Source: a virus (lineage: Duplodnaviria > Heunggongvirae > Uroviricota > Caudoviricetes). From it: a stretch of DNA of 49,704 bases. A program made the translations under genes and the position numbers. The first letter of the stretch is position 1. Every line of letters starts with the position of its first letter. The notes beneath the pieces were generated by a model. The model was not told the DNA's origin. It searched no databases and was given only the letters and a program-made list of their open reading frames with translations. Below are positions 3,757 through 39,084 of this stretch, piece after piece. Location of the stretch: the IMG/VR virus record IMGVR_UViG_2703718837_000001. One strand, written 5' to 3'.

Positions 3757-3773
3757 ATTGCTCTAATAAATAA
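3757..3773 (+). promoter_or_regulatory. P1 C1-repressor operator-like site
   Basis: ATTGCTCTAATAAATAA, 15/17 match to the P1 operator consensus ATTGCTCTAATAAATTT (consensus recalled from literature). Confidence 0.55.
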
Positions 3774-3805
3774 CGTGATGAGTGTACATCACGTTTTAAA
3801 AATAT

Positions 3806-3822
3806 GGAATTATTAGAGCAAT
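3806..3822 (-). promoter_or_regulatory. P1 C1-repressor operator-like site (inverted partner of 3757-3773)
   Basis: Reverse complement reads ATTGCTCTAATAATTCC (14/17 to consensus); the two sites face each other about 50 bp apart. Confidence 0.5.
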
Positions 3823-3823
3823 A

Positions 3824-4525
3824 TTATTCTAACTCTTGCTCAAAAAACGCGCTAATGAGGGGGAGCCAATCCTCTGACACTTCGCGAGGTCGCGGTTTGC
3901 CGTGGAAAAAGATTATTCGGCAGTCTTTTGGTAATGCCCCATTCCCCCTGGAGTAACGCGCGCTCGCATATTTCGAACCAGGTTCCACAACATCGGCCTT
4001 GTAACTTACAAACCATCCCGGATACAGATCCTGAAATGCTGGTGTATCATCACCCATAACCTTCCGCAAAAACCCCTGATCACCCCAGCATTCAGTAGTA
4101 ACACAACGAGCAATCCAACCTTCCGGATCTTGCCAGAATGCACTCCAGATATGCGCTTTTACACTATTTGGTATCCACAGGGCACCGCTACCACGATATT
4201 GTGGATGGTAAAAATCCCTAAGCATGGTGAAGCTGTTTGGTGGATTCTCAAGGATTGGGCGTATATCACCGGCAATAACCGTGTCCAAATCCAGATAGAA
4301 CAGATCATCGGTTATATCCGGTCGGAACAACTCGATTTTCGCCCACCAGCCACGGCACTTTTGCCACTGGTTGATCAATGGGACAACTTTGACGCCAGGT
4401 ACATGTAAACGCTTCAGGTCTGTCAGGCAAATAATTTCATAGCCTTTTGGCAGTTGATTAACCAGCCACTGCACATCGGAAGCGTTATAGTCACCACCAG
4501 AACGAAGAACTAAAGCAATCTTCAT
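3824..4525 (-). CDS. Hypothetical phage protein
   Basis: 233-aa ORF; stop overlaps the start of the upstream phosphatase gene (operon arrangement). Confidence 0.6.
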
Positions 4526-5214
4526 GCTGCACCATCACCTTTCACTTTCATCAATGTCAGGTTTCCGCAAAATACGGCACCAGTGTCGATATAATGCTGA
4601 TTCCAGAATGTCTTCGGGCTTTTCACCGGAGTGTGACCAAAGATAAAACGATCTGCGCCAGAAATTTCGCCACCAATATCATCCATCGAATCACTGATAC
4701 GCTCGCGCGCCCAGACAACGTTGAAAAGCGGCACCTCCTTACCGAATTGATATTCATTATCCGGATAGTCGGCATGGGCTATAACGATAGTTTCTTGCCC
4801 GGTGTTCAACTCAATGATATAGGGCAGTCGTCTTACCAACTCCACCAGCGCCCTGGCTAATATTTCCTGATCAGCGTCCAGCATGAAGAACCATTGACCG
4901 CCATTCATTAGCCAGTTATTCACGTTGCCAGCAGGACTTAACGCATCAAGCATCAACCGCTCATGGTTCCCCATGACTGCCCTGAACCATGGCATCTGCA
5001 ATAGTTCCAGACATTCGACATTTTCAGTACCGCGGTCGATAAGGTCTCCGACCGATATCAGTAAATCCTGCGCCGGGTCAAAATCCACACGATGGAGTTC
5101 AGACATCAGTCTGGTGTAGCAACCATGCAGATCACCAACAACCCAGATATTCCTGTATTTTGCGCCGTCGATACGGTGATAAATTGTTGGTGCCATCATG
5201 TATTCTTCAGCCAT
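4522..5214 (-). CDS. ppp: Ser/Thr protein phosphatase, lambda-PPase-like metallophosphoesterase
   Basis: Motifs GDLHGC, GDLIDRG, GNHE in the canonical order and spacing of the calcineurin-like/lambda phosphatase family; 230 aa. Confidence 0.9.
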
Positions 5215-5822
5215 TCTTTAAGAGTCATCTGCGGAATACCTCCCATTTTCCCGCATGAAACAACGTCAATCTGTTCACGCGCAGACTGGAATAACAAAGG
5301 CAGGTGACTTAGATTTTTTGGCGTGCCGCCGGAGTGAACGCGTGCTTCTTGCGTAGCGTCAACGCCCACCAGGGCGACATGCTTGAATCCGATATGGAAA
5401 GCCAGGTTCAGAGCACCATATGCACTATTGCCGCTGGCAATTTCATTCTCATCTTCGCAAAGTCCGAAATGTGCGGACCAGCGCCACGCCCACCACTCGG
5501 GAGAATTCGTATTTTTTGGCTCCATGCCGCGTTCAGCCACACGACGGAAGCACAGAACGCCGTCTCTGACTTCACGTTCTTTAACATCGGGTAGCGCCAT
5601 GCAATAACAAACACCACGGCGACGGCGGCCACGACCAACGCGCCGCATATTGTCTGGCGATGGATCAAGGGTGAAAAAATAAGAAGCGCGGTTAAGCCAG
5701 TCGATGGCCCCATTGACCGCTATAATCGGCACTCCGCGCGGCGCAACAAAGTTTGCGGCGCTTGGGCCACTGCCGACGATAATAACGCGATCACTGCCTC
5801 TAAATTTATTCTTGGGAAACAT
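5196..5822 (-). CDS. Hypothetical protein with N-terminal IIVGSGPS motif (paralogue 1)
   Basis: 208 aa; shares GSGPS...IIAVN...NSG.....A....G...V.LVG.D pattern with the adjacent 220-aa ORF. Confidence 0.6.
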
Positions 5823-36968: not shown

Positions 36969-37521
36969 TTTTTCTGACTCGATCCAGATCGGGTTGGTCG
37001 ATCTGCTCAGAAACCTGCCAGTTCGCTGGCAGGTTTTTTTGTATAAGGCGTTTTTCAATGTGGATTTGTGGCTGGCTAAAACGAAAAAGGCCACAGGTTT
37101 TACCCTGTGGCCTGTTCGGGCGCAACGCGCTGCTGTTACACTGCGAACTAACGCCCTTCAATATTGTTATGCAATGTGGAGAAGTGAGGCAATCACTGAT
37201 GCCAACACAGAACTTGAAGCTCCGATGATGACAGGAACAATGATGTTGGTCACAATCCACTTGCAAGCTTTTTGAAGAGTCATTACGAAGCTCCGCATAC
37301 TTGCAACAGCAACTGCTTGCGGCTATCCTCTTGTTGTTCAGACATAAGGAATGCCCTCGCTGGTTGCCTCCATGCAACGTTGTGGCGAGGGTTTTTTCTG
37401 TCTGGAGGCTACGCATCCAGGAGTTCATAACCCCCGCATAACGTTGCGCCTCCCCTGAAAAACAGGGTTGGGCATATCGTACACATGCCTGTAATTTATG
37501 GCAAATCCTGGTCTGAATACG

Positions 37522-38535
37522 TTAAGACAAGGACGCCACTGGTTTTAACAAACCAGCATCAAGTAGCTTGCGAGTTAACCACTGCTGGCCTTTACCCGTT
37601 AATTGGGGCGTCAGCCGTATCTGGTAGCCATTTTCATCATCCAGCACCACTTCTTTCACCGTGAAATACCCGGCGTTGATGTACTGTTGGCGCGGTACGT
37701 TTTTGCGCGCTCCAAAAGCCATGAGAATGCCATTCTGGCGCAACCATGAGAAAAGGGCGTTTTGCTTAAGTCCAACGACCTTTGCAAAGTTCCCGATCAG
37801 GATTCCATTGGCCACTGATACCCGGTCGGCAAAATCGACTTTAGGGGCTGCGGCCACCAGCTGCTGTTCCAACTGCATTTTCTGTTCTGCCAACTCGGCA
37901 GCCAGGCGTAGAGCTTCTGGTAATGTTTGGGGGATCGATGGGGCAGGGGAGTTTGCCTGCTGCAATTCTTCCAGTTTGTCGATCAGCGAACGGCGGACCG
38001 CTTTCGATTCGCGCGCGGCGACTCGCAGGGCTTGTTTGTAGGTCATGGTTATAATATCTATTTCTGCGCCGTTTTTTTGACCTACGAAAATTTCGTAGGT
38101 TTCTCCTTCAAGCTCATCCTTAACTCTGGCAATGAAATCATTGTTGCGAACTGGTTTTTCGCTACATAATTTCCGTGCCTCATTGACCATCTTCAACAAT
38201 GTTTGGCTGTCGATTGTGTCTCCGGTGTTGGGGATGACATTCAGGGCTGGTGCTGGTTTTTCAACATTTAAATTATTACCGGTCATTCTATGTGCCTCCT
38301 TTCTCATTTCTGCTGCCACTGTTGCGTAACGTAGACGTCCTTGTTCAATCAAATAATCCCTGATCTCGGCTATCAGTAGCCTGTTGATCACAGCCTTATC
38401 TGTTCGGGTATAAAAACGTCTGGTTATCATGAAATAGTTGGCAATTGCGCCGGGGATCTCCCGTGTCGGCATACAGGTTGTATGCAAAGCGATCGCTTCG
38501 GCTATTTCATTACGGGTGACGAGAGGTTTTTTCAT
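37522..38535 (-). CDS. Antirepressor-like protein (Ant C-terminal domain)
   Basis: 337 aa; C-terminal 130 aa nearly colinear with the kilA C-terminus (PQTLPEALRLAAELAEQK...GKGQQWL); translationally coupled to an upstream 73-codon ORF. Confidence 0.65.
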   Translation of the reverse strand: MKKPLVTRNEIAEAIALHTTCMPTREIPGAIANYFMITRRFYTRTDKAVINRLLIAEIRDYLIEQGRLRYATVAAEMRKEAHRMTGNNLNVEKPAPALNVIPNTGDTIDSQTLLKMVNEARKLCSEKPVRNNDFIARVKDELEGETYEIFVGQKNGAEIDIITMTYKQALRVAARESKAVRRSLIDKLEELQQANSPAPSIPQTLPEALRLAAELAEQKMQLEQQLVAAAPKVDFADRVSVANGILIGNFAKVVGLKQNALFSWLRQNGILMAFGARKNVPRQQYINAGYFTVKEVVLDDENGYQIRLTPQLTGKGQQWLTRKLLDAGLLKPVASLS

Positions 38536-38753
38536 AAAACCCCCTGAACGTCGGCAGAGAAGGGGAGGTTCCAGTAACTAAGTGAATTGCGCGAGTTAGT
38601 CGAAAAACGGGCAGTAAAAATGCAGGGGCCATCAGGCAATTGAGAGCGTGCTTCGTCTTCTGTTGCTGCGATGACGAAGTGATAGTGGTGTTTTTTACAG
38701 GAATAGAAACGCCAGATGAATTCAGGGCGTGCGCAAGGATTGGCATTAACCAT
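38532..38753 (-). CDS. Small protein coupled to the antirepressor gene (icd-like position)
   Basis: 73 codons; ATG preceded by GAGG; stop overlaps the ant start (ATGA-type). Matches the position of icd in the P1 immI operon. Confidence 0.45.
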   Translation of the reverse strand: MVNANPCARPEFIWRFYSCKKHHYHFVIAATEDEARSQLPDGPCIFTARFSTNSRNSLSYWNLPFSADVQGVL

Positions 38754-38809
38754 AGTTACGGCCTCACAATCAGGTTTAACAACCTGCTACCCGCTGCTAA
38801 ACAGGTGGC

Positions 38810-38900
38810 AGGACGTGACGGGGTTAGCAGACTGGCGATTGTGAAACCAGCAGGCCGAAGCCTCCCCATCACGCCCCACCATAATTTGGGCGTAACGCGG
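38810..38900 (-). ncRNA. Candidate c4-like antisense RNA of the immI region
   Basis: Segment contains TCACAATC, complementary to GATTGTGA next to the SD of the 73-codon ORF, and CTGCTAACC, complementary to two GTTTAGCAG copies at 38794-38806 and 38961-38973 on the same transcript. Confidence 0.35.
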
Positions 38901-39067
38901 TTTTACGGACACAAAAATACCGCAATATCGGATATCTGCGGCTGTCCGCACAATCATTCAGGCTGCTAAACCCGGTCGCAGAATTTGCTACGACGGCGAA
39001 ACTATAAGCCTGAACGATTAAAAGGTCAATATGATGCGAAAAGATAGCATTCGCGACTTAAAAATAC

Positions 39068-39084
39068 AAATTTATTAGAGCAGG
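39068..39084 (-). promoter_or_regulatory. P1 C1-repressor operator-like site heading the immI-like operon
   Basis: Reverse complement CCTGCTCTAATAAATTT (15/17 to consensus). Confidence 0.55.

Follow-up and report, generated by a model that had tools for sequence, protein, structure and literature searches.

Sites matching the C1 immunity operators of phages P1 and P7 in a P1-like plasmid prophage

The IMG/VR virus record IMGVR_UViG_2703718837_000001 (49,704 nucleotides, called the window in the following) is, judged by its sequence, a P1/P7-like (Punavirus) plasmid prophage with a P7-type immI region. Its control regions carry ten 17-bp sites, which were compared with the operators of C1, the primary immunity repressor of P1 and P7. 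The identity of the window to P1 was ~97%, and the orientation is reversed relative to the P1 reference. In a megablast search against phage genomes, P1, P7 and their relatives matched both window halves at 96–98% identity, and P7 covered 98% of the right half. The conserved blocks showed 92–98% identity to P1 (AF234172) and P7, and the counterpart of the window in AF234172 lies at ~37.3–83.8 kb. Every structural, replication and immI gene of the window is an intact open reading frame (ORF).

C1 recognises an asymmetric 17-bp site. Bound on or near the -35 and -10 hexamers or in the early transcribed region, it shuts dispersed sigma-70 promoters in the lysogen. Biochemical mapping of the P1 operator network dates from the late 1980s, and a genome-wide annotation followed in 2004. 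In P1, 22 operators dispersed over the genome are bound by C1, and their asymmetric consensus is ATTGCTCTAATAAATTT (PMC8546580).

In pairwise alignments of each control region, all ten sites coincided exactly with 'phage repressor C1' protein_bind features of AF234172 (Table 1). Five of the ten are identical to their P1 operators, four are one base off and one is two bases off (6 of 170 positions in all). The P7 record AF503408 annotates the three corresponding sites, at c4, kilA-repL and rap/rlf. From their sequence and position, the ten sites are almost certainly operators of C1, kept at ancestral positions in a P1-like plasmid prophage.

The initial annotation had listed eight 17-mers resembling P1 C1 operators. 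All eight exist, each of them lies on an annotated P1 operator, and eight of the ten operators were thus found; Op83 and Op72a were missed. The convergent pair at 3757–3822 proved to be Op86b and Op86a at pmgR, and the site in a divergent region is Op82 of pmgL and gene 26. The site at the head of a methyltransferase operon is Op68 before uhr-hrdC-dmt, and those upstream of kilA-repL and of the immI operon (c4-icd-ant) are Op53 and Op51. The site at 17471–17487 had been described as weak and was listed alone. It is instead a 15/17 match and one half of the bivalent Op72ab, the partner of which is Op72a. The other weak site, at 35185–35201, is a real operator (Op55), but its coordinates were off by one base.

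The -35 and -10 hexamers annotated in P1 are kept and lie on or beside nine of the ten sites when they are transferred to the window. The promoter-like positions claimed for the listed sites were found for all of them except Op55. The P1 record (AF234172) states that Op86a 'controls expression of pmgR and pmgS'. Op82 overlaps the -35 of P1pmgL (7431–7436) and the -10 of P2pmgL (7442–7447), and the boxes of an Lpa-type late promoter adjoin it (7471–7489). The halves of Op72ab are inverted and overlap by 6 bp (17482–17487), which is the arrangement of a bivalent operator. Op72a lies over the -35 of P1ban (17492–17497) and Op72b over its -10 (17469–17474), and the pair also covers the -10 of P2ban. 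Positions 1 and 2 of Op51 read AA in P1, TC in P7 and CC here, and P1 homology breaks exactly at the 5′ edge of this operator.

Table 1. Positions of the operators, operons and other features in the window. Operators carry the P1 name followed by the AF234172 name; fractions are matches to the 17-bp consensus.
Feature	Position	Strand	Sequence and consensus match	Remarks
Op86b / OpmgRb	3757-3773	+	ATTGCTCTAATAAATAA; 15/17	Monovalent; 1 base from P1; in transcribed leader just past PpmgR -10
Op86a / OpmgRa	3806-3822	-	ATTGCTCTAATAATTCC; 14/17	Monovalent; identical to P1; covers PpmgR -35
PpmgR hexamers	-35 3816-3821; -10 3793-3798		-35 TTGCTC	
Op83 / Oppp	6523-6539	+	CATGCACTAATTAATTT; 13/17	Monovalent; identical to P1; core TGCWCTAATWA; just downstream of PpmgN -10 (6552-6557)
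Op82 / O26	7430-7446	+	ATTGCACTAATAATTTT; 15/17	Monovalent; identical to P1; divergent pmgL / gene 26 control region
Op72b, half of Op72ab / Obanab	17471-17487	+	ATTACACTAATAAATTT; 15/17	Half of bivalent operator; identical to P1
Op72a, half of Op72ab / Obanab	17482-17498	-	ATTGCTATAATAAATTT; 16/17	Half of bivalent operator; 1 base from P1
Op68 / Odmt	21781-21797	-	ATTGCTCTAATAAATAT; 16/17	Monovalent; identical to P1; abuts Pdmt -35 (21776-21781; -10 21752-21757)
Op55 / Orlf	35186-35202	-	ATTGCTCTAATTAGAAC; 12/17	Monovalent; first 11 bases are a perfect core; 1 base from P1; corresponds to P7 Op(rap)
Op53 / OrepL	36952-36968	-	TTTGCTCTAATAATTTT; 15/17	Monovalent; 1 base from P1 and P7; covers PkilA -10 (36958-36963; -35 36981-36986)
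Op51 / Oc4	39068-39084	-	CCTGCTCTAATAAATTT; 15/17	Monovalent; 2 bases from P1; overlaps P2c4 -35 (39064-39070) at head of immI operon
pmgR-pmgS operon	2260-3742	-		pmgR 3524-3742 (72 aa), pmgS 2260-3522 (420 aa); downstream of PpmgR/Op86ab; collinear with P1
pmgN-pmgO-pmgP-ppp-pmgQ	6479 down to 3824	-		Behind Op83
pmgL-pmgM	7372 down to 6546	-		Behind Op82
uhr-hrdC-dmt operon	17489-21709	-		uhr 21425-21709, hrdC 20527-21432, dmt 17489-20530; under Pdmt/Op68
rlfA-rlfB	35037 down to 33869	-		Op55 ahead
kilA-repL	kilA 36081-36881; repL 35206-36051	-		repL contains lytic origin oriL; under Op53
immI operon	37522-39046	-		a1/b1 targets 38955-39007, c4 RNA 38804-38880, icd 38532-38753, ant1/ant2 37522-38535
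Remodelled ban operon	13444-17470	-		Downstream of Pban/Op72ab
IS605-type TnpB (391 aa)	15949-17124	-		Insertion point uninterrupted in P1
Orphan Argonaute-associated nuclease (311 aa)	14169-15104	-		Pfam pP_pnuc_1+2; PADLOC Aga_Nuclease 2e-62; no Argonaute gene nearby
dbn remnant	13444-13872	-		142-aa glycosyltransferase remnant
Strong intrinsic-terminator-like hairpin	17285-17304	-	TGCCCATCTTCGGGTGGGCA then T7	~170 nt downstream of Pban, in leader
Blocks collinear with P1 (blastn map)				pmgS through gene 5; dmt through repA; gene 23 through kilA; ant-icd-c4; pmgC through S
Segments differing from P1 (blastn map)	1-2143; 12252-13450; 14042-15573; 15909-17237; 37041-37534; 39083-40458			Also parts of dmt and the par region

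The sites are far more frequent than expected from composition. With at most three mismatches on both strands, the consensus gave 8 matches, with 0.39 expected from dinucleotide shuffles, and 0 of 100 shuffles reached 8. Shuffles that kept the composition within 200-nt blocks gave a mean of 0.23 matches at the same threshold. To avoid circularity, an independent position-weight matrix (PWM) was built only from the six P1 operators outside the region syntenic with the window (Op88, Op99a, c, d, e and Op2a). It gave 8 window sites at 17–21 bits, and 0.06 were expected at 17 bits or more (300 shuffles). A PWM scan against a shuffled background had been proposed as a check in the initial annotation; equal frequency in shuffles was not seen. 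The ninth PWM site was 6523–6539 with 14.9 bits. Lower scores blend into noise, with 1.66 matches expected at 13 bits or more.

The core was more discriminating than the whole 17-mer. The exact 11-nt core ATTGCTCTAAT occurred four times in the window (0.04 expected) and the core TGCWCTAATWA eight times (0.12 expected). Counting mismatches over the whole 17-mer was powerless at 4–5 mismatches in the 200-nt block shuffles: 14 sites had exactly five mismatches, compared with ~15.5 expected (17.94 at five or fewer minus 2.48 at four or fewer). The 17-mer lacks self-complementarity and recurs from 3.7 to 39 kb, unlike palindromic, clustered operators of the lambda type.

A more diverged relative, Cronobacter phage JK004 (MZ188976), has ~70% nucleotide identity and 54% guanine plus cytosine, and is rearranged. 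In its 94 kb, ~22 C1-type sites were predicted at 14 bits or more, with the core ATTGCTCTAATAA as in the window. All genes of the JK004 record are annotated as 'hypothetical protein', and its operators are unannotated. JK004 retains Op86b and Op86a at an unchanged spacing of 49 bp, and identity is 88% within these sites versus 61% in the flanks. Op68 reached 82% identity versus 55% in the flanks. An operator-like site is also found at the position orthologous to Op83 (69155). Gene 26 is relocated in JK004, and an operator-like site (70227) is still upstream of the pmgL-side genes. Because the operator stayed with the pmgL side after gene 26 had moved, the comparison suggests that Op82 serves the promoters of the pmgL-pmgM side. 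On the ban side, JK004 has two sites in direct orientation (29881, 29909) with 28 bp between them, whereas the window has an overlapping inverted pair. JK004 has no region homologous to Op51, Op53 or Op55, so the footprint covers Op86ab, Op68 and the Op83 position.

Three diverged HrdC loci in species-representative genomes (Malihini, Symbiopectobacterium and Zophobihabitans; 44–57% amino-acid identity) contained no C1-type sites. Such loci are uninformative; they probably belong to other elements. The gene rlfA is patchy cargo and was found only in close P1/P7 relatives.

Among the known targets of C1 repression in P1 is repL; C1 is inactivated by Coi and by Ant1/Ant2, Ant synthesis is blocked by c4 RNA, and Lxc also modulates C1 (PMC8546580). 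In the window, the ten sites would guard eight early control regions, with bound C1 occluding RNA polymerase. The guarded units would be pmgR-pmgS (Op86a/b), pmgN-pmgQ including ppp (Op83), pmgL-pmgM (Op82), the former ban operon (Op72ab), uhr-hrdC-dmt (Op68), rlfA-rlfB (Op55), kilA-repL for lytic replication (Op53) and the c4-icd-ant antirepressor operon (Op51). The co-repressor Lxc/Bof would strengthen the repression, and the antirepressors Coi and Ant1/2 would lift it. Ant would in turn be held down by c4 RNA, here of P7 specificity. The c4 antisense RNA matches P7 c4 at every position and P1 c4 at all but five, and the Rfam families C4 and c4-a1b1 match the immI operon above their gathering scores. 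The element should carry the immI and partition specificity of P7. We infer C1 binding at the window sites from P1; the sequences, their enrichment, the positional orthology, the retained hexamers and the conservation in JK004 are direct observations.

Behind Op72ab, the ban operon is remodelled. It has lost ban, tciABC and the three tRNA genes (ARAGORN detected no tRNA), and it contains TnpB and an Argonaute-associated nuclease. At least 12 plasmids in PLSDB have this ban-less arrangement, the mcr-1 plasmid pHYEC7-mcr1 among them. The terminator-like hairpin lies within the 'dicF-like region' of the P1 record, a part of the Pban leader that matched neither DicF nor any other Rfam family here, at the gathering score or at E ≤ 1. 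Op72a differs from P1 by a C-to-A change at position 7, a base that is invariant in the other 17-mers except the degenerate Op99b. The variant was present in 2 of 91 P1-like IMG/VR contigs. The same change turns the -35 of P1ban from TTGCTC into TTGCTA, which is closer to TTGACA.

In place of a replicative helicase, Op72ab and Pban might now govern TnpB, a transposon-encoded RNA-guided nuclease, and the Argonaute-associated nuclease. The C1 regulon would then be rewired, and the nucleases would be switched on at induction, or a leaky expression in the lysogen would serve as defence. Support for these readings stops at gene order, and the strong terminator-like hairpin 170 nt past Pban has to be set beside them. 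We regard rewired immunity control here as unlikely. Read-through from the ancestral Pban is the only way in which immunity control of the new cargo (TnpB and the Argonaute-associated nuclease) could come about. The sites had also been taken to flag accessory genes under immunity control. This holds only indirectly, as none of the cargo specific to the window brought its own operator.

In another reading, the cargo would be under C1 through operators that P1 does not have. Two PWM matches of ~13.5 bits lie in segments that P1 lacks, namely 12576–12592 (-) in an uncharacterized ORF downstream of gene 5 and 19971–19987 (-) in the dmt intein, and both recur in relatives that carry those segments (the E. 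coli contig L097; pHYEC7-mcr1 at 86672). However, they do not exceed the number of matches expected by chance at 13 bits or more, and both are inside coding sequence and not at promoters. At 12576 the invariant CTAAT core is replaced by TTATT, and the recurrence merely reflects near-identical DNA. It is thus quite improbable that extra operators place window-specific cargo under C1. The matches at 19971–19987, 12576–12592 and 43554–43570 were rejected as new operators, being chance-level and intragenic. With the independent PWM and the mismatch scan, the window-specific segments contained no credible operator.

Several observations weigh against reading the ten sites as working operators. Op55 overlaps no promoter: the repL stop codon precedes it by 4 bp, and the -35 of PrlfA (35087–35092) follows ~95 bp downstream. 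The overall mismatch count cannot set Op55 or Op83 apart from chance, and the core substitution may weaken the Op72a half-site. Compared with P1 (97% identity), the operators show no more conservation than the DNA around them (3.5% of positions differ). As a result, conservation between the window and P1 alone proves nothing about selection; the functional argument rests on the P1 experiments (GenBank annotation, literature) and on the JK004 footprint. Finally, tblastn found no c1 gene or C1 homologue in the window, so that we only infer the repressor of this element.

The last two points would also fit relics, that is, sites kept through recent divergence from P1 but without function since the element lost c1 or is a defective prophage. 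Decay is visible elsewhere in the window: the element lacks ban and the tRNAs, has truncated dbn and pap genes, carries an insertion sequence and a foreign left end, and has a substitution in the core of Op72a. However, the missing c1 is expected, because P1 c1 lies outside the region covered, ~10 kb further to the left. The plasmid pHYEC7-mcr1 shares the unusual cargo of the ban region at 99.3% identity. It has a gene for a 'phage repressor protein C1' and, counting the Op99 cluster next to c1, ~20 operator-like sites, so sibling elements have kept the regulon intact. In addition, the structural, replication and immI ORFs show no decay, and kilA-repL and ant without C1 should be lethal or unstable according to established P1 biology. 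Relics are, in our view, highly improbable, and the sites are best read as C1 operators. A chance resemblance of AT-rich promoter DNA to the consensus can be dismissed as refuted by the shuffle controls: the sites do lie in AT-rich intergenic DNA and matches with 4–5 mismatches do occur at chance frequency, but no shuffle reached the observed count, the PWM and exact-core counts were also far above expectation, and the AT-rich foreign segment 550–2143 had no PWM match above 9 bits.

The P1 homology ends at window position 2144, within the 5′ end of pap, and the DNA to the left of it is all foreign. Op88/OpmgT, the 11th P1 operator of the corresponding segment, is missing from the window because the pap-pmgT side was swapped for 2.1 kb of foreign DNA. 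The segment 1–2143 is foreign to P1 and P7, had no match among PLSDB plasmids and takes the place of most of pap, Op88 and the pmgT side. Its first 549 bases correspond at 96% identity to the 5′ end of an autotransporter gene from the E. coli chromosome; the gene is on the - strand and extends past the window. A protein of 186 amino acids is encoded at 880–1440 (+); it is a complete Phage_integrase domain and has the size of FimB/FimE. The remaining part (1441–2143) is non-coding and rich in AT, and ACCCCCC(C)TA motifs recur in it. An invertible-switch architecture around this small tyrosine recombinase was not convincing, as only weak inverted repeats (~71–72% complementary) and terminator hairpins were found.

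Other segments also differ from P1. Two ORFs of unknown function (130 and 233 amino acids; PHROGs 34496 and 25194) lie at 12285–13437 (+), between gene 5 and the dbn remnant, and have no counterpart in P1; the first of them holds the chance-level match at 12576–12592. The par region (25459–27833) differs from P1 and is within the window half of which 98% is covered by P7. The sim gene is replaced by homologues of P7 upf50.5 and upf50.0 (39366–40430), which was confirmed by direct alignment to P7.

Dmt has 1013 amino acids here and 754 in P1. An intein (Hint_2, Intein_splicing and LAGLIDADG_3; approximately amino acids 77–418) is located N-terminal to the C5-methylase and Dam domains. The intein-bearing dmt may recur in L097, judged from the shared marginal PWM match inside the intein coding sequence.

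Between the ant stop codon and PkilA/Op53 there is an insert of 494 bp (37041–37534) that is absent from P1 and P7 and present in at least 17 plasmids of E. coli, E. albertii and Salmonella. A small ORF in the insert would encode a hydrophobic peptide of ~38 amino acids (MTLQKACKWIVTNIIVPVIIGASSSVLASVIASLLHIA) and precedes a terminator-like hairpin; RefSeq relatives have no annotation for it. The ORF could be a gene for a small membrane toxin or peptide. A 173-aa ORF (36907–37428) that overlaps Op53 and PkilA was judged to be spurious, as it has no family match and is unannotated in RefSeq relatives.

The feature as a whole is already known: it is the textbook C1 operator regulon of P1 and P7, correct but ordinary. 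Its discovery value is small, and its value is one of annotation. This P1/P7-like phage-plasmid, whose lineage includes carriers of mcr-1, e.g. pHYEC7-mcr1, appears to have kept its immunity regulon intact. Its own peculiarity is the cargo, and the cargo that was swapped in brought no new operators. Mild novelty is confined to the remodelled ban operon and its variant bivalent operator.

The closest known system is P1 itself, whose operators have the same asymmetric 17-bp sequence, strand, promoter hexamers, flanking genes and genome order as those of the window. P1 has Op88, ban, tciABC and three tRNAs, whereas the window has no Op88, the C7-to-A change in Op72a, TnpB and the Argonaute-associated nuclease, and the intein in Dmt. 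P7 (AF503408) has its annotated operators Op(c4), Op(rep) and Op(rap) at the same three places, and both immI and the replacement of sim in the window are of the P7 type. The differences from P7 are the start of Op51 (TC in P7, CC in the window), one base in Op53 and the 494-bp insert, which P7 and P1 both lack. The CI/Cro operators of lambdoid phages are likewise sites of a prophage immunity repressor that overlap early promoters. However, those of lambda are palindromic dimer sites clustered at two control regions, whereas the sites of the window are asymmetric and occupy eight control regions spread across 35 kb or more.

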